Part shown: positions 4,991 through 54,842 of the stretch, one piece after another | Numbering within the stretch: position 1 is the stretch's first letter | Layout of the letters: every line of letters starts with the position of its first letter | Origin: Candidatus Saccharimonadales bacterium | Lineage (GTDB): Bacteria; Patescibacteriota; Saccharimonadia; Saccharimonadales; UBA10212 | DNA length: 64,000 bases | Assembly (NCBI GenBank): GCA_035758565.1 | Contig: DASTXL010000001.1 | Span: 11,242 to 75,241, forward strand | Reading direction: 5' to 3' | Notes under the pieces: model-generated | Seen by the model: only the letters and a program-made list of their open reading frames with translations | What the model was told of the DNA's origin: nothing | Databases searched by the model: none | Translations under genes and position numbers: made by a program

Positions 4991-5616
4991 GCAAAGATCT
5001 AATCGCCTCGATAGCCGGCGGTATATCAATAATTTTCGCGACTTGGGCGGCAGTGCCTTACATTCTCTCTATCTTGCGCGGCAGGACTAAGCCGCACCAA
5101 ATGACCTGGCTGGTTTTCAGCATTATGAACGGAGTAGTCTTTCTAAGCCAATACCTCAAGGGCGCCAGAGCTAGCGTGCTGCTTTATATCGTCTGGTTCT
5201 TCTCCAGCACGATTATATTTCTGCTGTCTTTAAAGTTTGGGTTGCGAAACACCTCGCGTCTGGACCGCACTTTATTTAGCTTAAGCCTGCTGACGATTGT
5301 GGCTTGGGCTTTAACCAAAAATCCGTCGGTGGCAATTTGGCTGACGGTTTTTATAGACATTTTTGCTACCAGCATGATGCTGCTCAAAATTCGCGCCCAT
5401 CCCGACTCCGAAGAAGTTTTTCCATGGATAATTGGCACGATAGCCTACATATTCACAGTAATTTCTCTTATCAATAAATCTTTCGGGATACTATATGTCC
5501 GGCCAATTTACGGACTCATATCGGAGGCCGCTATTCCGATTTATATACTTTACCTAGCTAAGACCGGCGGCCAAAGCAATAAAAAAAGGCCTTCCGGCCT
5601 CAACATTCAAGTGTGA
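4987..5616 (+). CDS. Polytopic membrane protein, unknown function
   Basis: 209 aa with about 6 hydrophobic helices. Its start overlaps the alaS stop (ATGA). Confidence 0.55.
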   Translation: MSKDLIASIAGGISIIFATWAAVPYILSILRGRTKPHQMTWLVFSIMNGVVFLSQYLKGARASVLLYIVWFFSSTIIFLLSLKFGLRNTSRLDRTLFSLSLLTIVAWALTKNPSVAIWLTVFIDIFATSMMLLKIRAHPDSEEVFPWIIGTIAYIFTVISLINKSFGILYVRPIYGLISEAAIPIYILYLAKTGGQSNKKRPSGLNIQV

Positions 5617-5620
5617 TTCT

Positions 5621-5664
5621 GAGAGGGGCGCCGGTGAAGGCGCCGCCTCTCTGCAGGATTTTTT
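5621..5664 (+). terminator. GC-rich hairpin plus T-run downstream of the 4987..5616 gene
   Basis: GAGAGGGGCGCC ggtgaa GGCGCCGCCTCTC, then TTTTTT at 5659-5664. A 7-nt gap separates stem and T-run, so it is sub-optimal. Confidence 0.4.
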
Positions 5665-5714
5665 CATCGGCCCTGCTTGGCCGGTGGAGCTAGGAGTCGG
5701 GCATCTGGTAGTTG

Positions 5715-6146
5715 TTACGCCACACGTCGGAGCGGGTTCGTGTCCTTACCTACTTGCTCGCTGTCCTCGTTCCAGAAGGAGGAGGAGGTCAGCGCGACGA
5801 ACGTCGCCAGGCCGAACACCAGGCTGGTGAGGCCGAAGACGATGTAGCCGATCCTGAAGGCGGGCACGCAGGCCATCATCTCCACGATGGAGACGATGAT
5901 GTACAACGAGAACGTGTAGCCGTTGTCCTCGACCTCGAACCAGTGCGCGACGAACCACATCAGCAGTCCGACGAACACCTCGGCGACGAGGATCCAGGCA
6001 AGCTCGCCGCTGGCTAGCGGCCAGAAGAGCTTGTCGTGCCACGGGATCTGGTAGGCCACGAAGTGGCCGATGGCGGCGCGGTAGTCGTTGACCAGCAGTG
6101 CCGCGAGAACACCCGCGAAGACGGCAGAGAAAAGCTTGAACTTCAT
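5715..6146 (-). CDS. Small 4-TM membrane protein on a high-GC islet, unknown function
   Basis: GGGAGG SD lies 7 nt upstream of ATG 6146 (MKFKLFSAVFAGVLAALL...). The protein has hydrophobic helices and GC3-rich codons. The competing frames are Arg/Pro-rich shadow ORFs. Confidence 0.6.
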   Translation of the reverse strand: MKFKLFSAVFAGVLAALLVNDYRAAIGHFVAYQIPWHDKLFWPLASGELAWILVAEVFVGLLMWFVAHWFEVEDNGYTFSLYIIVSIVEMMACVPAFRIGYIVFGLTSLVFGLATFVALTSSSFWNEDSEQVGKDTNPLRRVA

Positions 6147-6343
6147 TTGAAGCAACCTCCCTGGAGAAGTGACATTTGCCAAAGGCAAGCAAATAACTAA
6201 GTATTTAGCGATCTATCTGCCCCTGGCAATAACTAGCTCTAAGTTGTAACGTGCGTCCAACCACCTCTAGCGATTGAACGGACATATAATAGCACTTATG
6301 TTTAGTTTTGTCAATATCATAACCGCTTTCGACAAGAGTAATG

Positions 6344-12113: not shown

Positions 12114-13394
12114 ATGTTTGTTGATAGAGTTGAAGTAGATATCCAGGCCGGCGACGGTGGGGATGGAGCCGTTAGCTTTAGGCATGAAAAGTTTGTCGAT
12201 CGCGGAGGCCCGGACGGCGGCGACGGTGGTAGTGGCGGTGACGTAGTGTTGGTAGCTAGTCGCAATCAAAATACACTGGCCGCTTTTCGTTATCAAAAAT
12301 TGCTTAAGGCCGAGAATGGCGAGCCGGGCAGCAAACGCCGACGTCACGGCAAGAACGCCTCGTCCCTAGAAGTAAAAGTGCCGGTGGGCACAGTAGCTAC
12401 CACTAAAGATGGCAAGGTGCTTGCTGATCTCACAGAGGACGGCCAAAGGCAAATTATAGCCCACGGTGGCCAAGGCGGCTTTGGTAACGCTCATTTTGTG
12501 AGTTCAACTCGCCAGGCCCCACGAGTTGCCGAAAAAGGCGAAAAAGGCGAAGTACTTGATGCGATCTTGGAACTGAAAATGATTGCCGACGTAGGCATCA
12601 TAGGCTTGCCTAACGCTGGCAAATCTACTCTTTTGTCGGTAGTTAGTAACGCGCGTCCGGCCATCGCCGATTATCCATTCACCACGCTTACTCCAAACTT
12701 AGGAGTGGTTGATATTGATGGCAAGCATAGTTTATTGCTGGCTGATATCCCAGGGCTGATCGAGGGGGCCAGCCAAGGCAGAGGGCTGGGTGATGAGTTT
12801 TTGCGCCACGTTGAGCGCACCAGCGTGCTACTCCATCTACTAGACGTTTACAGCCAAGATATTGCCGCCGATTATAAAACCATCATGCAAGAGCTGGCTG
12901 CCTACAAGGTGGATTTATCTAAGCTGCCGCAGATTGTAGCTTTGAGCAAGATTGAGGGTATGGACAAAAAAGAGGTTGAGCAAAAGCTAAAACAACTTAA
13001 AGAAATTGTTCCATCTGGCACTAGTACGGCGGCTGTTTCAAGCGTTAGCGGCGACGGCGTTCAAGCCTTGCTAAGAACAGTACAAAAACAGGTAGAGAAA
13101 ACTAATGCTAAGGCTAAGGCAATTGAGAGTAAAAAGCCGCACCTACCGATTATCGGTTTGCGTGGAGAAAATGAAGCTTGGCGCGTCGAAAAAACCATAG
13201 ACGGGTTTACCGTGCGTGGCCGCAAAATCGAACGTTTTGCCCGCCGAACCCGATTTGGCGAAGAACACTCAGAAGAGCGGCTGCGTGACATTATGCGCAA
13301 GATGGGCATAATGCGCGAGCTCGGCCGCCAGAACATAGAAGCCGGGCAGACGGTAATCTTTGGAGATCCCGAAATCGGTAGAATTGAGTACTAA
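12114..13394 (+). CDS. obg: GTPase Obg
   Basis: MFVDRVEVDIQAGDGGDGAVSFRHEKF..GGPDGGDGGSGG (Obg fold). G1 motif GLPNAGKST. C-terminal OCT-like domain. Confidence 0.92.
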   Translation: MFVDRVEVDIQAGDGGDGAVSFRHEKFVDRGGPDGGDGGSGGDVVLVASRNQNTLAAFRYQKLLKAENGEPGSKRRRHGKNASSLEVKVPVGTVATTKDGKVLADLTEDGQRQIIAHGGQGGFGNAHFVSSTRQAPRVAEKGEKGEVLDAILELKMIADVGIIGLPNAGKSTLLSVVSNARPAIADYPFTTLTPNLGVVDIDGKHSLLLADIPGLIEGASQGRGLGDEFLRHVERTSVLLHLLDVYSQDIAADYKTIMQELAAYKVDLSKLPQIVALSKIEGMDKKEVEQKLKQLKEIVPSGTSTAAVSSVSGDGVQALLRTVQKQVEKTNAKAKAIESKKPHLPIIGLRGENEAWRVEKTIDGFTVRGRKIERFARRTRFGEEHSEERLRDIMRKMGIMRELGRQNIEAGQTVIFGDPEIGRIEY

Positions 13395-37463: not shown

Positions 37464-37481
37464 CTTTAAATCCTTACTTTA

Positions 37482-37530
37482 TGCAACCAATTGTTGCACA
37501 TTATAATTTATATTGCAACGATTACTGCAA
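37482..37530. promoter_or_regulatory. Divergent promoter region with TGCAA/TTGCA palindromes (candidate ArsR-family operators)
   Basis: TGCAAcCAATTGtTTGCA at 37482-37498 and TTGCA-N8-TGCAA at 37513-37530. They are flanked by TATAAT boxes at 37502-07 and 37533-38. Confidence 0.4.
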
Positions 37531-37532
37531 GG

Positions 37533-37538
37533 TATAAT
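37533..37538 (+). promoter_or_regulatory. -10 box TATAAT, 6 nt upstream of ATG 37545
   Basis: TATAAT at 37533-37538 and ATG at 37545. Confidence 0.45.
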
Positions 37539-37544
37539 CAGAGC

Positions 37545-37820
37545 ATGAAGTCGAATTTTAGGTGGTTGGCAAAAATAGCTCTTATAACAATAGCGATATT
37601 GCTGGTGCCGCTGGTTGCTATGCAGTTTAGTGACTCGGTGGATTGGAGTGTTGGTGATTTTGTGGTTGCGGCTGTGCTCTTGTTTGCCACAGCGCTGGCG
37701 CTTGATTTGGTAATAGCAAAAATCCAAGATCAAAAGCGCAAAATTATGGCCGTGGGCTTGTTGGCGGCGGCATTTCTGTTTGTTTGGGCCGAACTGACTG
37801 TTGGAGTATTTGGAGACTAG
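37545..37820 (+). CDS. Small 3-TM membrane protein
   Basis: MKSNFRWLAKIALITIAILLVPLV... 91 aa from the ATG placed 6 nt after TATAAT. Confidence 0.5.
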   Translation: MKSNFRWLAKIALITIAILLVPLVAMQFSDSVDWSVGDFVVAAVLLFATALALDLVIAKIQDQKRKIMAVGLLAAAFLFVWAELTVGVFGD

Positions 37821-37896
37821 ATAATTATAAAAGCGTATCCGCTGCGAGGAGGCTCCTTGGTAGGAGCCGTCACTCGCGGCGGACTGCTCACTGCTG

Positions 37897-38610
37897 TCAC
37901 TCGTGCACAACGACCGTCGTGCCGCGAGGCAGACGGTTGATGTAGCGCGCATACGACATCGACGGGATGTGGATGCACCCATGGCTGGGGAACAGCCCGT
38001 CGTAGTGCAGGCACTGGCCGCCGTTGAAGCAGGCGGCGTAGGGCATCGGCGCGTTGTTGTACTCGCGCGATACGAAGTCCGGCCCGAACTTGGCGTAGAT
38101 GTGGAACACGCCGTCGTGGGTCGTGTACTGCACGCCATCGATGTTGCCGGCGTAGGCCACCGGTGTGCTGAGTGCCACCGTGACATTCTTGGTCACGGGG
38201 TTGAGACGCAGCACCGAGACGATGGCCGGCGACTTGCTCGCATCTACCGCCCAGCCGCTTTGGCGAGCGGCACTGATGGCCGTCTGGCTGATGTAGCTGG
38301 GCAGCCGTTCGACAGTTGCCTCGCTCCTCAGCTTGTTCCACTGGCTGCTGCCGACGACGATCCAGCCGGTGGGCCGGTAGCCCTCGGCCTTCTGCCAGCG
38401 TTGCAGGCCCGACATGGTGAGCGGGCCGAACGCGCCGTCGAACGCGCTGCCGTAGTAATCGGCGTGCACGTTCATGTGCAGGTCTTGCTGCAGCACGGTA
38501 ACGGACGAGCCGTTGCTGCCGGGCTGCAGCCTGGCGGGCGAGGCCGCTAGGGACGAGTTGGCGCAAATGGCCGCGACCAGGGTCGCAGCCGCCATAGCGA
38601 TGAGCCTCAT
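37897..38610 (-). CDS. L,D-transpeptidase (YkuD domain) with N-terminal PG_binding_1 domain; high-GC islet
   Basis: Signal peptide MRLIAMAAATLVAAICANSSLAA. PG-binding motif VTVLQQDL...DGAFGPLTMSGLQRWQ. YkuD motifs MPYAACFNGGQCLHY and SHGCIHIP. AAAGGAG SD upstream. About 67% G+C. Confidence 0.75.
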   Translation of the reverse strand: MRLIAMAAATLVAAICANSSLAASPARLQPGSNGSSVTVLQQDLHMNVHADYYGSAFDGAFGPLTMSGLQRWQKAEGYRPTGWIVVGSSQWNKLRSEATVERLPSYISQTAISAARQSGWAVDASKSPAIVSVLRLNPVTKNVTVALSTPVAYAGNIDGVQYTTHDGVFHIYAKFGPDFVSREYNNAPMPYAACFNGGQCLHYDGLFPSHGCIHIPSMSYARYINRLPRGTTVVVHE

Positions 38611-38717
38611 AGACCCCTAAACTCCTTTCCGGATCGTAATGGACCTATGACTTAGCTGTTTTACCATAAAAATTCATTGTTGGCAATAAAATAACAGATT
38701 AGGCAAGGCCGCTAGCG

Positions 38718-38729: not shown

Positions 38730-39116
38730 GTGCAAGCTTACAAAAACTTCCGGCCGTTTACTGAACTCGAGGCGTGGGGATTATTCCGCTTGGCGGCGCT
38801 GGCCGAAGCGGCTGGATGGACAATTTTAATAATTGGCATTTTGTTCGAAAAATACATTGTACCGGGCAATGTAGTATCCGTACCTTTGGCCGGCAGTGTT
38901 CACGGGACTCTATTTCTTATTTATATAGCTGCCGTGGTCGTTCTTTCACCCAGCCAGGACTGGAGCCTACGCCAGACTTCAATTGCCGGCATTGCCAGTG
39001 TGCCGCCATACGGTTCGCTAGTGTTTGAGCAATGGGTCGCCCACGACCGCCGCAAATTAAACCTTAAACAATCGGTATTTTTGCTAAGCTACCGCCAGCT
39101 TGTAGACGAAAGCTAG
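38730..39116 (+). CDS. DUF3817-like integral membrane protein
   Basis: FRLAALAEAAGWTILIIGILFEKY...GSVHGTLFLIYIAAV. 128 aa, 4 TM helices. Confidence 0.6.
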   Translation: MQAYKNFRPFTELEAWGLFRLAALAEAAGWTILIIGILFEKYIVPGNVVSVPLAGSVHGTLFLIYIAAVVVLSPSQDWSLRQTSIAGIASVPPYGSLVFEQWVAHDRRKLNLKQSVFLLSYRQLVDES

Positions 39117-39525: not shown

Positions 39526-39599
39526 GGCGCGATGGCCGAGGAGTTAGGCAAGGGTCTGCAAAACCCTGTACACGAGTGCGAATCTCGTTCGCGCCTCCA
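39526..39599 (+). tRNA. tRNA-Cys (GCA)
   Basis: Acceptor GGCGCGA/TCGCGCC, anticodon loop CTGCAAA, discriminator U (typical for Cys), T-loop TGCGAAT, encoded CCA. Confidence 0.85.
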
Positions 39600-40152: not shown

Positions 40153-40238
40153 GGGCGAGTGGCGGAATTGGTATACGCTGCGGACTTAAAATCCGTTGCC
40201 GATAAGGCTTGAGGGTTCGAGTCCCTCCTCGCCCACCA
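40153..40238 (+). tRNA. tRNA-Leu (UAA), class II
   Basis: Acceptor GGGCGAG/CTCGCCC, anticodon loop CTTAAAA, long variable arm, T-loop TTCGAGT, encoded CCA. Confidence 0.9.
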
Positions 40239-42271: not shown

Positions 42272-42358
42272 GGGGATGTGGTGAAATTGGTATACACGCT
42301 ACGTTCAGGACGTAGTGGGCTTACGCCCGTGAAGGTTCAAGTCCTTTCATCCCCACCA
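42272..42358 (+). tRNA. tRNA-Leu (CAG), class II
   Basis: Acceptor GGGGATG/CATCCCC, anticodon loop TTCAGGA, long variable arm, T-loop TTCAAGT, encoded CCA. A TAAACT hexamer ends 7 nt before the mature 5' end. Confidence 0.9.
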
Positions 42359-42454: not shown

Positions 42455-43645
42455 TCAAAAATGTGTCAGGCGCCAGGTTATCGGCGGTTTCGGTACGTCT
42501 GTTTTTAGAATAACGCCGCTTGAAGCGGTGGTTGTGCCGCTAGATAATTGAACAGTGCCCACATTCTGACCTTTTGTAGCCGGCGTTTTGATAGGTTTAA
42601 TATTTTCTTTAACACTCGGGGTCTTATCTTTCCAGACCAGCATTTTTACGTCTTTGGTGGCGATCGCTTGATAGGTTTTGCCCCACTTGGTTTTATATGT
42701 AGCTACTACTTGTCCGGCCTTGACCGGTTCGACTAGCGTAAAGTTAGCATCAACATTTTTGATAATTGTTTGGCTATCTGATAATGCGCTCGATAGGTCC
42801 GGATCACCAACCACGGCACCAATAATTGTTTTGGTTTGGCCGTCTATGGTGTGTTTGGCGGCAAACATAAAACAGCCGCCGGCTTGGTCGGTGTTGCCGG
42901 TTTTAATGCCAACAATTCCGTCGCTGCCCAAAATGCTGTCCGAAACATTATAGATAGTGCCAAAAGCCGGTGAGTCAGCCACTCGCTGGCTGACAAGGTC
43001 GGCTATAACCGGATTGCCCATAGCTGCATAAGCGAGTTTGAACAAGTCGCTGGCTGTAGAAACGGTTTGTGGCGAAAACCCGCTAGCGTCAGAAACGGTG
43101 GTGCCGGTCATGCCCAAACTTTTTACGTAGCTATTGGCGTAGGTAGTGTAGGTGCTAATTGAGCCAAACTGCCAGATTGCTAAAGAATCGGCGATATTAT
43201 TGGCGCTCGGCAGCATCATGGCCTGCAAGGCCTGGTATTCGGTTATTTGCTGGCCGGCAGTTACTGGTACCAGCGAGCCGTCTTCGGCGGCATATTTTTG
43301 ATAAATAGCCACGTCATTGTCTGTCAAAGTTATAGTCGGGCCTTGCTCGCCAGATTTTAAAGGACTTTTTTGCAAGACGCTCAGGGCCGTAATTACTTTG
43401 GCGATGCTGGCGATCGGTGCCGGAGTCTGCTGGCCATGAATGGCGAGCAGACCGTCTTCTGTTGTGCCCAAAGCCATTTGGCCACTGGGCCAGGGCAGGC
43501 TTGCGGCAGCAGGCTTGGGTGTATCCAAGCTAGCCAGACTGGCGCTTGTTTGCGCAAACGGCCGGGTCAGATTAAAAACTTCAATAACAATGATAATTAT
43601 CAGCGCTAAGGCGATAGTGTACCGGAGCAACTTTTGTTTAGTCAT
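42455..43645 (-). CDS. D-alanyl-D-alanine carboxypeptidase (S11, PBP5/6-like)
   Basis: SxxK (ASIAKV), SxN (PSANN) and KTG (IKTGNT) motifs in the correct order. N-terminal TM/signal anchor. Confidence 0.85.
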   Translation of the reverse strand: MTKQKLLRYTIALALIIIIVIEVFNLTRPFAQTSASLASLDTPKPAAASLPWPSGQMALGTTEDGLLAIHGQQTPAPIASIAKVITALSVLQKSPLKSGEQGPTITLTDNDVAIYQKYAAEDGSLVPVTAGQQITEYQALQAMMLPSANNIADSLAIWQFGSISTYTTYANSYVKSLGMTGTTVSDASGFSPQTVSTASDLFKLAYAAMGNPVIADLVSQRVADSPAFGTIYNVSDSILGSDGIVGIKTGNTDQAGGCFMFAAKHTIDGQTKTIIGAVVGDPDLSSALSDSQTIIKNVDANFTLVEPVKAGQVVATYKTKWGKTYQAIATKDVKMLVWKDKTPSVKENIKPIKTPATKGQNVGTVQLSSGTTTASSGVILKTDVPKPPITWRLTHF

Positions 43646-51555: not shown

Positions 51556-51686
51556 CACGGTCTTGCTAAGAAGTTGGTTTTATGATTTAATAGTAACGCT
51601 CTAGTGTAGGTTAAGCAGAATACGGTTTGGGCGATCTGGAGTGCCTTGTATTCCTGTGGAAACAGAAATCGACCAAGGAGGATGTG

Positions 51687-54600
51687 GTGAAATTCCACAC
51701 CGGATGGCGGCCCAAGGTCGCCTGGCTCGTGGTTGCCGCGGCAGTTCTGCTGCTTGCGGCCACCGTCAGCGGTTCCGCCAGGGCGGATGCCCCGGCGACC
51801 GTGTACGTCAACTCGGCCTGGAGTTCGGTGGCCAACGGGGATGACCCGGACGGCACCGGCCCGGCCACGGCCATGGGCACGGACGCGTTCAGCAACCTGC
51901 CCGATGCCGAGGCGGCGCTCGCCGACCACGGCACCATGTACACGAAGGGCACGTTCGATGCCTCGGACATCGCCCTGAACAAGCCGTTCACGCTGGACGG
52001 CCAGGGCGAGACCGAGCTCGACGTGTCCGCCGGCAGTTCGCCGGTGAACGCGCTCGACATCACGTCGGACGACGTGACGGTCACGGACGTCCACATCGTC
52101 GGGCCGGCCGCCGGGACGAGTTACCTCAGCTTCAGTTGGGGCAGCGACATCACGCGCGGCATCACCGTCGCGCAGGGCGTCACCGGGTTTGCGATCACGA
52201 ACAGCGTGATCGAGGGCCTGCGCAACGACATCCTGATCGACGGCCGCAACAGCACCGGCTCGGTGACGGGCAACACGATCGACGACTCCAAGTCGGCGAT
52301 CTCGGTGCAGTACACCGACGGCACGGGCCTGACCATCAACGACAACCAGGACGGCCAGTACGGCAACGAGTGGGACCTGAACCTGCACCTGAACGGGAAC
52401 TACGACGGTTCGACCACCCACTCCAACCCGTACCCGGGCGGCGCGGCGCCGGACGATGTCCAGCAGCACCTGCTGGACCTCAGCTCGGCCAACGACGGCT
52501 GGTCCGTTCAAGACCAGGCGTACACGTCGCACAACCGCACGGTGGCCTACGTCAGCACGTCCGGATCGTCGAGCAACCAGGGCAGCCCCCTGAACCAGCT
52601 CAGCACGATCCAGGCTGGCGTGGACGCCGTCGTGAAGACCGCCACGGTCCACGTCGCGGCCGGCACCTACGCGGGACAGGTCAAGATCAGTAAGGACCTG
52701 AACCTGCAAGGGGCCGGCACGGGCAGCACCACGCTGCAGGCGGCGGCCTCGATGCCGTCGTTCACGATCAACGGCTCGGCGCACTCGCCGGTCGTGGCCG
52801 TGGACGGTGCCAAGGTCACCATCAGCAACCTGACCGTTGACGGCAACGGCCAGGGCAACAGCAACGGCCGGTTCAACGGGATCGGCGGTTCCAACGCCGA
52901 CCTGACCATCGACGATGTGTCAGTCATTCACGTCCGCAACAACCCGCTCGATGGGGTGCAAAGCGGCGTAGGCATCTACGACTACAACACCGATGGCTCG
53001 AGCCGGACGGTGAAGGTCGAGAACTCGACCATCGCCGACTACCAGAAGGGCGGCGTCGTGCTGTCAGGCTCCGGTCTGACCGCCGACGTCGAGAACGTCA
53101 CCGTGACGGGCGCCGGGCAGACCAGCCTGACTGCCCAGAACGGCATCCAGGTCAGCTACGGCGCGTCGGGCACCGTCACCGGCAGCACGGTGAGCGGCAA
53201 CTACTGCACGCTCGCCAACTCCGGCGACAACTGCACGGCCGACCCGGCCGGCAGTGATCCGAACGCCGACGGTGCGGCGGGCATCCTGCTATACCAGGCA
53301 GGCTCCGTCGAGGTCGGCGATAGCACGGTGAGCAACAACCAGTACGGCATCTGGAGCGTGGGCAGTTCTTCGCTGAACATCCACGACAACCAGGTGAGCA
53401 GTTCGGGCTCGACGAGCTCGGGCGTCGCCGTCTGGAACCAGGACCAGTGGTCCAGTTCCGCAACAGCGACCTCGGGGAGCATCACCGGCAACACCCTGAG
53501 CGGCATGGGCTACGGGCTGCTGATCCGCGACTACAACGGATCGAACGCCCCGACCGTGACCGCTCACGGCAACCAGATCACCGGCAATACCGTGCCGGCG
53601 GCGAGCAACACCAGCTTCGACGCCACTGGCAACTGGTGGGGTTCGGTCTCTGGGCCGGGTACGCTCACGGACGTGACGACCAAGCCCTGGGCGACGGACG
53701 CCTCGTTCAACACCCAGAGCAACAACGCCGACCTGACGAACCTGAGCCTGTCAGCCGGTACGCTGAACCCCGCGTTCAGTGCCGGTACGACGGACTACCA
53801 GGCCAGCGTCGACAACAACACGTCGAGCGTCAGCGTCAGCTGCTCGGCCAACCCCGGCGCAACCGTGTCCGGGTGCGGCAGCTCGGCCCTGTCGGTGGGG
53901 AACAACGTGGTCGCCATCACGGTGACGTCGGCCGACGCTTCGGTGTCCAAGACGTACAACGTGGTCGTCAACCGCGCGTCGGCTCCGTCCTCGGGCGGAG
54001 GCGGCAACACCGGTGGCGGCGGTACGCCGCCGCCCACCACGACCAGCACGCCTCCGACGGTGACGACGTCGCCTGACGGGAGCGTGACCCACACGGCGCC
54101 GGCGGACCAGTTCGGTGTCGTGAGCGTGACGACGCCCGCAGCGGCGGGCACGAACAAGTCCGAGTCGCTCTCGGTGATCTGGGGTGCCGGCACGTTCGGC
54201 ACCACCAGCGACCCGGTGGCGGTGAACTGCAAGCCCATCCCGGTGGGCTCGCAGAGCAACAACAGCAGCTACCGGTTCGCCGATCAGGTCGTGAGCATCA
54301 CGGCCGAGCTGAACGGCAACCCGATCACGCAGCTGTCGGCCCCGCTGGAGATCGTCTTCTCCAGCCCGGGGGAGGGGTTCGTCCCCTCGTACTCGCACGA
54401 CGGGGTGCACTTCACCAACATCCCGCTGCTCACCCGTCCGCCGGATCTGCCGGCGGGCCAGGCGGACGGCTACTACGTCGATGACAACGGGCGCTACCAC
54501 GTGCTCACGCGTCACCTGACGATCTTCCGCCTGATGGACGGCACGCCGCCGACCGCGTCGAAGCTCAAGATCCGCCCCACGAAGAAGTGGCTGCGGGCGA

Positions 54601-54842
54601 GCTGGAGCGCGTCGCACGACAACATCGGCGTCGTCAGCTACATCGTGTACCGCAACGGTCACGGCTACCGCGTGTCCAAGCACACGTACATCCCCCTCCT
54701 CCTGCGGGCGGGCAAGTACGTGGTTCGTGCCCGTGACGCGGCGGGCAACCTCAGCAAGCCGTCGGCGACCGTCACGGTTGTCCGCGTCCGGGTCACCCGG
54801 CACGGCAAGCACTCCACGGTCCTTCAGGTGAAGAAGGGCTGA
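51687..54842 (+). CDS. Large secreted beta-helix surface protein (PbH1-like repeats, cadherin-like beta-sandwich, G/P/T linker, FN3-like C-terminus); high-GC island
   Basis: AAGGAGG at 51675-81, then GTG 51684/51687. Signal peptide KVAWLVVAAAVLLLAATVSGSARA. Beta-helix repeats (NSVIEGLRNDILIDG, GNTLSGMGYGLLIRD, HGNQITGNT). ADLTNLSLSAGTLNPAFSAGTTDYQASV. GGGGNTGGGGTPPPTTTSTPPTVTT. DNIGVVSYIVYRNG. About 65-67% G+C. Confidence 0.7.
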   Translation: MKFHTGWRPKVAWLVVAAAVLLLAATVSGSARADAPATVYVNSAWSSVANGDDPDGTGPATAMGTDAFSNLPDAEAALADHGTMYTKGTFDASDIALNKPFTLDGQGETELDVSAGSSPVNALDITSDDVTVTDVHIVGPAAGTSYLSFSWGSDITRGITVAQGVTGFAITNSVIEGLRNDILIDGRNSTGSVTGNTIDDSKSAISVQYTDGTGLTINDNQDGQYGNEWDLNLHLNGNYDGSTTHSNPYPGGAAPDDVQQHLLDLSSANDGWSVQDQAYTSHNRTVAYVSTSGSSSNQGSPLNQLSTIQAGVDAVVKTATVHVAAGTYAGQVKISKDLNLQGAGTGSTTLQAAASMPSFTINGSAHSPVVAVDGAKVTISNLTVDGNGQGNSNGRFNGIGGSNADLTIDDVSVIHVRNNPLDGVQSGVGIYDYNTDGSSRTVKVENSTIADYQKGGVVLSGSGLTADVENVTVTGAGQTSLTAQNGIQVSYGASGTVTGSTVSGNYCTLANSGDNCTADPAGSDPNADGAAGILLYQAGSVEVGDSTVSNNQYGIWSVGSSSLNIHDNQVSSSGSTSSGVAVWNQDQWSSSATATSGSITGNTLSGMGYGLLIRDYNGSNAPTVTAHGNQITGNTVPAASNTSFDATGNWWGSVSGPGTLTDVTTKPWATDASFNTQSNNADLTNLSLSAGTLNPAFSAGTTDYQASVDNNTSSVSVSCSANPGATVSGCGSSALSVGNNVVAITVTSADASVSKTYNVVVNRASAPSSGGGGNTGGGGTPPPTTTSTPPTVTTSPDGSVTHTAPADQFGVVSVTTPAAAGTNKSESLSVIWGAGTFGTTSDPVAVNCKPIPVGSQSNNSSYRFADQVVSITAELNGNPITQLSAPLEIVFSSPGEGFVPSYSHDGVHFTNIPLLTRPPDLPAGQADGYYVDDNGRYHVLTRHLTIFRLMDGTPPTASKLKIRPTKKWLRASWSASHDNIGVVSYIVYRNGHGYRVSKHTYIPLLLRAGKYVVRARDAAGNLSKPSATVTVVRVRVTRHGKHSTVLQVKKG

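Follow-up and report, generated by a model that had tools for sequence, protein, structure and literature searches.

A GC-rich single-gene islet for a predicted L,D-transpeptidase, shared by a clade of Saccharimonadales and possibly of ancient high-GC origin

Results

The locus and its composition

The window analysed in this study, by which we mean the whole stretch of 64,000 nucleotides (assembly GCA_035758565.1, contig DASTXL010000001.1, positions 11,242 to 75,241) from Candidatus Saccharimonadales bacterium, carries on its minus strand a gene for a predicted L,D-transpeptidase of 237 amino acids, here called Ldt (open reading frame 37897..38610, stop codon included). The gene has a G+C content of 65.4%, with fractions of 0.58, 0.50 and 0.88 at the first, second and third codon positions (GC1, GC2 and GC3), and the whole window has 49.1%; a first-pass annotation, made from the letters of the window, had estimated about 67% by hand. 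Sliding intervals of 500 nucleotides exceed 60% G+C at three sites only, at approximately 5.6-6.1, 37.8-38.7 and 51.6-55.0 kb. According to a two-breakpoint likelihood scan and the sliding profile, the maximum-likelihood borders of the islet are 37840..38593 (66.0% G+C vs. 47.4% outside), a segment composed of the Ldt coding sequence and its downstream terminator hairpin. In a crude gene call of approximately 63 genes, GC3 is greater than 0.7 in three, namely 5715..6188 on the minus strand (0.86), Ldt (0.88) and 51627..54842 on the plus strand (0.92), and it ranges from 0.34 to 0.61 in the remaining 60, among which the gene of ribosomal protein L25 (19168..19941) has an ordinary 0.50. Both GC3 and the breakpoints therefore describe a sharp deviation from the rest of the window, as is required of a horizontally acquired island.

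Because AT-rich stop codons are scarce in such DNA, the islet also generates shadow open reading frames in three other frames, as had been reported from the letters: 37479..38186 and 37817..38566 on the minus strand and 37903..38550 on the plus strand. The Ldt frame has a GC3 well above its GC2, has homologues and is under purifying selection, and we therefore consider it to be the real one. GenBank already contains an identical protein, encoded on a contig of 483 kb and labelled 'L,D-transpeptidase family protein [Candidatus Saccharimonadales bacterium]'. As an enzyme, it belongs to a well-known family, within which it is divergent. The GenBank model has 232 amino acids and starts at Met6 (window region 38593..38610); the MK or MR N-terminus conserved in the family and the position of the Shine-Dalgarno sequence support Met1 at 38610 as the probable start.

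The Shine-Dalgarno sequence, AAAGGAG, lies 11 nucleotides upstream of the ATG (38622..38628, minus strand); the first-pass annotation had noted it as well. Just past the Ldt stop codon, between Ldt and the convergent gene 37491..37820 (plus strand), a GC-rich hairpin followed by a U-rich tract (37837..37884, minus strand) forms a probable intrinsic, bidirectional terminator, with a folding energy of -38.4 kcal/mol (z = -4.5) that was equalled in 0 of 200 shuffled sequences. A simple promoter and terminator scan flagged nothing for the Ldt gene, this hairpin included. The gene has both a ribosome-binding site and a terminator to itself and appears to be one functional unit. The absence of mobility genes, which had been claimed earlier, was upheld: no integrase or transposase and no convincing attachment site or direct repeat was found within 36.8-39.6 kb, and there are no phage genes near Ldt in the window. 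The closest tRNA gene (Cys, 39526-39599) is 0.9 kb from the islet, and native genes intervene.

Domains, fold and active site of the product

The N-terminus of the product is a predicted Sec signal peptide (residues ~1-23, MRLIAMAAATLVAAICANSSLAA; 38542..38610, minus strand, as are the other segments of the gene given below), which was read from the sequence by its basic n-region, hydrophobic core and AxA-like site; the initial MK or MR and the hydrophobic stretch are conserved in the family alignment. Residues 34-91 (38338..38511), which contain DGAFGPLTMSGLQRWQ, match the Pfam family PG_binding_1 (PF01471) at 26.9 bits, above the cut-off of 23, and the domain is matched in 32 of the 34 family members. 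The catalytic domain of the YkuD fold, delimited from Pfam and Foldseek matches, occupies residues ~118-237 (37900..38259). An hmmscan search had been proposed earlier as a check on both domains; it confirmed the first, but for YkuD (PF03734, residues 162-235) it returned 19.9 bits (E 1.2e-3), just under the gathering cut-off of 23.4; YkuD matches at E<=0.01 were obtained for every one of the 34 family members (the best at 2.1e-7). NCBIfam gave partial matches to subfamilies, far below their cut-offs. The earlier description is sound as regards a real single-gene islet whose product has a signal peptide, a PG_binding_1 domain and a YkuD fold.

In the AlphaFold2 model built from the family alignment, the mean predicted local distance difference test score (pLDDT) is 88.8, and only residues 1-22 are disordered (pLDDT <50). 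Helices 35-45, 63-75 and 89-97 of the model form the three-helix bundle of the PG_binding_1 domain, and the profile of Ldt aligns with the peptidoglycan-binding domains of 4lpq, 4xxt and SleB. A Foldseek search of the PDB matched 4lpq (E 3e-11) and 5bmq (E 1e-9), both at probability 1.0, and dozens of LdtMt2, Ldtfm and YkuD structures at the same probability (1y7m and 1zat among the matches), with a root-mean-square deviation of ~3 Å over 130-140 columns between the model and the LdtMt2, Ldtfm and YkuD structures. The proteins 4lpq (Xylanimonas cellulosilytica) and 5bmq (Stackebrandtia nassauensis), the nearest two-domain enzymes of solved structure, whose organisms we take to be Actinomycetota, share the domain order and fold of Ldt, and profile alignment places His202 and the SHGC of Ldt onto their catalytic His and SHGC; however, they are only 20-23% identical to it, and in 4lpq the loop between His and SHGC is 4 residues longer and the catalytic Cys begins CVR, whereas Ldt has CIH.

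The catalytic motif is S209-H210-G211-C212-I213-H214 (37969..37986). Across the alignment of 34 sequences, in which the motif is SHGC(I/V)H, residues S209, H210, G211, C212, H214, H202 and D204 are invariant, and His202, the catalytic partner, is 10 residues upstream of Cys212. The consensus of L,D-transpeptidases is phiGphiHG(S/T)-X10-(S/T)XGCphiR(M/L) (PMC12729407). Canonical YkuD-type enzymes and Ldt have in common the beta-sandwich catalytic fold and a Cys-His active site in (S/T)xGC, but the corresponding region of Ldt reads GQCLHYD-GLFP-SHGCIHIP, which lacks the full canonical motif: HYD replaces HG(S/T), His replaces the Arg after Cys-phi, and the distance from His to Cys is 10 residues rather than ~16. 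LdtMt2 likewise lacks the consensus Arg, and we therefore treat the mismatch as subfamily variation and not as a reason for exclusion. Judging by its alignments, Ldt appears to belong to a divergent subfamily of the YkuD fold with its catalytic residues intact.

Orthologous islets in related genomes

A search of 5.8 billion clusters identified approximately 34 homologues of Ldt at 41-73% identity, two of which are named Saccharimonadales by NCBI. The closest of these (up to 73%) are all in Saccharimonadales-type genomes, and the loci that we fetched (handles L001 and following, with coordinates of the locus itself) carry orthologues of window genes at 44-88% identity, including UvrC, SecG, SBP_bac_5, FAD oxidase, M48 peptidase, LemA, RibD_C, Mur ligase, Ddl, LeuRS and NusB. 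Since window-gene orthologues can be recognized in them, these loci must come from Saccharimonadia-type genomes, at roughly genus-to-order distance. The identity of Ldt tracks that of the flanking genes across loci: it is 62% in L003 (flanking orthologues 46-87%), 65% in L019 (60-88%), 66-67% in L001 (57-67%) and 44% in L006 (44-71%). The earlier view of Ldt as a gene sitting alone in this genome as a private import is contradicted by this core-like divergence and by the Saccharimonadales-type genomes of its closest homologues.

In all 22 of the other lower-GC contexts, the G+C content of Ldt exceeds that of its flanks; the difference is +1.5 to +17.7 points and reaches +8 or more in 19 of the 22. 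The islet is therefore not peculiar to the source genome. Close relatives have an Ldt GC3 of 0.76-0.90 and flanks of 46-54% G+C; in the deep branches L031, L032, L034 and L037 (40-48% identity) GC3 is 0.52-0.61 and the flanks have 40-46%, and in L039 (37% identity) the Ldt GC3 is 0.67 vs. 0.36-0.58 for the neighbours. The first-pass annotation had regarded closest homologues in genomes of the Candidate Phyla Radiation with similar GC as evidence against an import. This condition applies by half: the closest homologues are in genomes of that kind, and there, too, the gene is an islet richer in GC than the DNA around it. The same arrangement, with Saccharimonadales-type flanks on both sides, occurs in independent NCBI, JGI, ENA and Logan assemblies.

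The position of Ldt differs among relatives. It is beside the block of Mur ligase and LeuRS genes in L006 and L041, near FAD oxidase, ABC transporter and Band_7 genes in L001 and L003, and near an alpha-amylase gene in L022 and L025. The L001 copy has an IS1595 transposase 3.7 kb upstream and a BrnT/BrnA toxin-antitoxin pair downstream (5448-6311, 12188-12695), and in L039 (1-5057) a restriction-modification system and GmrSD lie upstream of the gene; Ldt tends to sit in accessory regions. Further genes of high GC3 occur near Ldt in relatives, including Band_7 genes (0.76, 0.82), a sortase with its neighbour (0.76, 0.70) and several hypothetical genes (L003 7100-11471, L023 3518-8064, L020 3391-4760, L001 3459-4088), and compositional mosaicism may be common in the clade of the window. 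Certain deep-branch members (L006 9833-10675, L036 578-1609 and protein P0044) have lipoboxes (LTAC, LTGC) followed by linkers rich in Pro, Ser and Thr; these are lipoprotein versions tethered to the membrane, unlike the soluble form of the window's clade.

Relatives in high-GC contigs and the family tree

A profile search of 1.84 billion representatives added approximately 40 full-length clusters, several with leaders rich in Ala, Arg, Gly and Pro. Two relatives of Ldt are encoded in high-GC contigs. P0036 is 47% identical to Ldt over residues 28-237, the whole mature protein, and is located on a contig of 69% G+C, where its GC3 of 0.87 equals that of its neighbours (0.86-0.89) and is hence a native composition; it is flanked by AMP-binding, acyl-CoA dehydrogenase, TetR and SDR genes. 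P0073 (40% identity; GC3 0.93) is located on a contig of 74% G+C and adjoins GAF-ANTAR regulators. The flanking proteins of the high-GC contigs have their best matches in Streptomyces, Rhodococcus and Mycobacterium at ~40-42%, and the GAF-ANTAR protein matches Microbacteriaceae, Streptomyces and Rhodococcus at 42-48%, with nearly all of the 88 records from Actinomycetota; the taxonomy of loci L042 and L043 is taken from weak matches of flanking genes to PLSDB plasmids. Such matches are suggestive of an origin of the high-GC contigs in Actinomycetota, and are not proof of it. Neither search returned a high-GC homologue above 47% identity, and no donor or host can therefore be named.

In the neighbour-joining tree of the family, for most leaves of which genomic context is lacking, a Saccharimonadia-type clade excluding P0036 and P0073 was recovered in 1 of 100 bootstraps. 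P0036 has a mean identity of 49% to the window's clade, above that of the deep Saccharimonadia branches (32-44%), and the group nearest to P0073 is that of L039 (45%). The two high-GC proteins are thus interleaved with Saccharimonadia members, the incongruence in phylogeny that is expected after horizontal transfer. Dormibacterota were considered as donors and rejected. A genome scan found 12 loci with SHGC(V/I)HIP. Their products, however, begin with long helical regions, lack PG_binding_1 and have a long loop between His and Cys, and identity over the catalytic domain is no higher than 29-35%; they are generic YkuD proteins of a different architecture.

Selection and synonymous divergence

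Ldt orthologues have a ratio of nonsynonymous to synonymous divergence (dN/dS) of ~0.3, with an NG86 dS of 0.7-1.9; core genes have a similar dN and a saturated dS. The identity of synonymous codons at conserved residues is barely above a null that preserves codon usage (e.g., 0.64 vs. 0.53), and in deeper pairs of Ldt it cannot be told apart from the null. Polarized synonymous changes from GC to AT outnumber those from AT to GC by 17:4, 13:0 and 18:3. The residual synonymous signal is 0.16-0.23 for Ldt and 0.03-0.07 for core genes of the same genome pairs; because the control against ancient high-GC relatives spreads from -0.12 to +0.31, we do not claim that Ldt alleles coalesce later than genomes.

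Neighbouring genes and the other GC-rich genes of the window

The neighbours of Ldt encode a small transmembrane protein and a DUF3817 protein. A DUF3817 membrane protein adjoins the Ldt-family gene both in the window (38730..39116, plus strand) and in the distant L039 (9379-9732), and the two are 36% identical. Three tRNA genes are 0.9-3.7 kb from the islet (the Cys gene given above, Leu(taa) at 40153-40238 and Leu(cag) at 42272-42358); a 12-nucleotide inverted match between the 3′ end of Ldt (37898-37909) and the tRNA-Cys gene (39567-39578) is probably due to chance. A gene for an S11 D,D-carboxypeptidase is located 4 kb from Ldt (42455..43645, minus strand), and its orthologue is also near Ldt in L003.

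The gene at 51627..54842 (67% G+C) encodes a secreted surface protein of 1071 amino acids with beta-helix and cadherin-like regions; it has only two close homologues (56-57%), no clear donor, and patchy similarity of 40-55% to proteobacterial hemagglutinin-like proteins and to Patescibacteria 'peptidoglycan-binding' proteins. It is directly upstream of the Mur-ligase/Ddl/LeuRS/NusB block in the window, and an Ldt-family gene occupies the slot beside the same block in L006 (5612-10675) and L041 (1-5154), which may be a variable 'cargo' position. The gene at 5715..6188 encodes a small multi-pass membrane protein without a Pfam family, and translation probably starts at the Met of codon 15 in the listed open reading frame. 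The three compositional outliers all encode envelope proteins, as the first-pass annotation had observed. Its further suggestion, that envelope proteins were repeatedly imported as single genes, is plausible for the Ldt family and a conjecture for the other two islands; no homologues of the proteins of those islands were found in the fetched loci.

Discussion

Horizontally acquired genomic islands ameliorate toward the composition of the recipient. Ldt resembles such islands in the sharp deviation of GC and GC3 confined to it, in its native high-GC relatives and in its interleaved phylogeny. However, the Ldt islet is a single gene without an integrase, an attachment site borne by a tRNA gene or flanking repeats, and the whole clade, not just one strain, has kept it; the mobility signature of an acquired island is absent, and the 22 other contexts and the 47% identity of the best high-GC relative are at odds with a recent acquisition. 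On balance, and with the reservations that follow, we favour as an explanation of the whole a functional single-gene islet that was imported long ago from high-GC bacteria, retained across the clade and employed in remodelling the peptidoglycan of the organism's own wall.

Under this explanation, the family would be a small one common to two groups, with a native composition in high-GC, Actinomycetota-like soil bacteria and a composition richer in GC than the surroundings in soil Saccharimonadia, into which the gene would have been transferred from high-GC bacteria. Across the family, transfer probably took place more than once, with at least two exchanges. The copy in the window would have entered the ancestor of a Saccharimonadales clade before its diversification, or would have spread within the clade, and since then it would have been retained under purifying selection with its foreign composition only partly lost. 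The persistence of the GC excess may reflect slow amelioration, spread within the clade or active maintenance of GC-rich codons. The high-GC, Actinomycetota-like origin suggested by the first-pass annotation accordingly remains plausible, given the native relatives of 40-47% identity in contigs of 69-74% G+C, the presumed Actinomycetota from which the nearest two-domain structures come and the interleaved tree, but it comes without a donor.

The product is predicted to be exported via Sec and to bind peptidoglycan through its N-terminal PG_binding_1 domain, and the Cys/His site of its C-terminal YkuD fold would perform chemistry of the L,D-transpeptidase type, with a thioester on Cys212. It would thereby remodel the cross-links between stem peptides in the epibiont's own wall, either by 3-3 cross-linking or by a related L,D-transpeptidase, L,D-carboxypeptidase or exchange reaction, and the nearby S11 D,D-carboxypeptidase is a plausible supplier of tetrapeptide donors. 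In the literature that we searched, no paper on L,D-transpeptidases or GC islets of Saccharibacteria was found.

Several points weigh against the explanation that we favour. Composition is the sole guide to the direction of transfer, and the GC excess is kept in the deep branches too, where synonymous sites seem to be saturated; plain amelioration would tend to remove such an excess. The excess of GC-to-AT changes is only marginally beyond the ratio of ~2.3:1 that a simulated parsimony artefact yields at equilibrium. The adjacency of DUF3817 in the window and in L039 hints that the gene has long resided at one locus, which sits uneasily with separate imports. The family tree is a neighbour-joining tree of modest support with genomic context for a minority of its leaves, and the best high-GC relative, the nearest approach to a donor, is only 47% identical, its probable taxon being drawn from weak matches of flanking genes. 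With regard to function, the YkuD score is below the cut-off and the catalytic loop is non-canonical, so that transpeptidase activity is a prediction.

The origin of the islet could be explained in other ways. An assembly chimera or a contaminating high-GC fragment might be suspected from the abrupt change in GC in a contig derived from a metagenome-assembled genome, but the borders enclose a complete gene with its Shine-Dalgarno sequence and terminator inside a contig of 483 kb; because independent assemblies from four sources show the same arrangement, we regard chimerism as very unlikely, indeed hardly worth entertaining. We give just as little credit to a remnant of a phage endolysin. PHROG endolysin families do match residues 20-107, but these matches cover the peptidoglycan-binding module only, a search of 2.9 million viral contigs yielded no relative, phage genes are absent from the vicinity, and the protein carries a Sec signal peptide; this origin was rejected on the limited extent of the matches and the lack of viral relatives. 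A recent, private import of the single gene from the current actinobacterial host of the organism would account for the GC step exactly at the borders of Ldt, for a GC3 of 0.88 resembling that of native high-GC relatives and for the gene having its own Shine-Dalgarno sequence and terminator. However, orthologous islets occur in many related Saccharimonadales at 61-73% identity with a divergence like that of core genes, the synonymous divergence between orthologues is large, and nothing above 47% identity exists in high-GC contexts among the clusters and representatives searched; a recent private import is thus largely refuted and is very improbable. The opposite polarity, in which Ldt is a native Saccharimonadia gene whose GC-rich codons persist through active upkeep, be it selection acting on expression or on mRNA or a bias in repair, and the high-GC bacteria are the recipients, is a more serious competitor. 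It agrees with the GC excess in all 22 contexts, including the saturated deep branches, with the DUF3817 adjacency and with a polarity excess close to the equilibrium artefact. It is opposed by the native composition of the gene in high-GC contigs, by the variation in its genomic position among relatives and by the GC-to-AT changes, which still prevail. Moreover, only three of the approximately 63 genes bear the signature, and translational selection seems unlikely, 60 of the 63, the ribosomal protein gene among them, having an ordinary GC3. We consider a native origin to be improbable.

Two further proposals extend or alter the import with own-wall remodelling that we favour. The secreted enzyme might act on the peptidoglycan of the host at the attachment site, in the manner of an effector whose L,D-transpeptidase or L,D-carboxypeptidase activity alters stem peptides. 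A preprint (bioRxiv 10.1101/2020.02.18.954545) describes YkuD-fold antibacterial effectors of the type VI secretion system with L,D-carboxypeptidase or exchange activity. The likeness, an exported YkuD-type enzyme able to edit the peptidoglycan of a neighbour, would be an analogy of function only, and Ldt differs in having a Sec signal rather than type VI delivery and in having no recognized immunity gene. In favour of such action, the protein in the window's clade combines a Sec signal and a peptidoglycan-binding domain with no membrane anchor, it evolves faster than core genes by dN/dS, and it has relatives in Actinomycetota-like genomes; however, no immunity-like gene was recognized beside Ldt, and deep members of the family are lipoproteins tethered to the membrane of the producer. 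Host-directed action is a speculation, and we hold it to be unlikely. The other proposal is that the Ldt gene has been passed time and again between Actinomycetota-like hosts and their Saccharimonadia epibionts, with at least two exchanges, variable cargo slots such as that beside the Mur-ligase/LeuRS genes, a GC excess kept by repeated replacement or by selection for foreign codons, and a host-type 3-3 wall made or edited at the contact site; this proposal we put forward as a doubtful one.

Saccharibacteria live as obligate epibionts, and for most of their soil lineages no host is known; in cultivated Saccharibacteria, natural transformation has served as a genetic tool. The account of transfer presented here is plausible but conventional, and Ldt is a long-standing resident of the clade and not a lone recent import. 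The case bears on gene flow from host to epibiont and on how these organisms build and modify their peptidoglycan. If the family has indeed been exchanged recurrently, such islets could serve as pointers to the hosts of soil Saccharimonadales that have not been cultured, and a cell-wall gene that still bears a high-GC mark is in this respect a concrete and testable lead.

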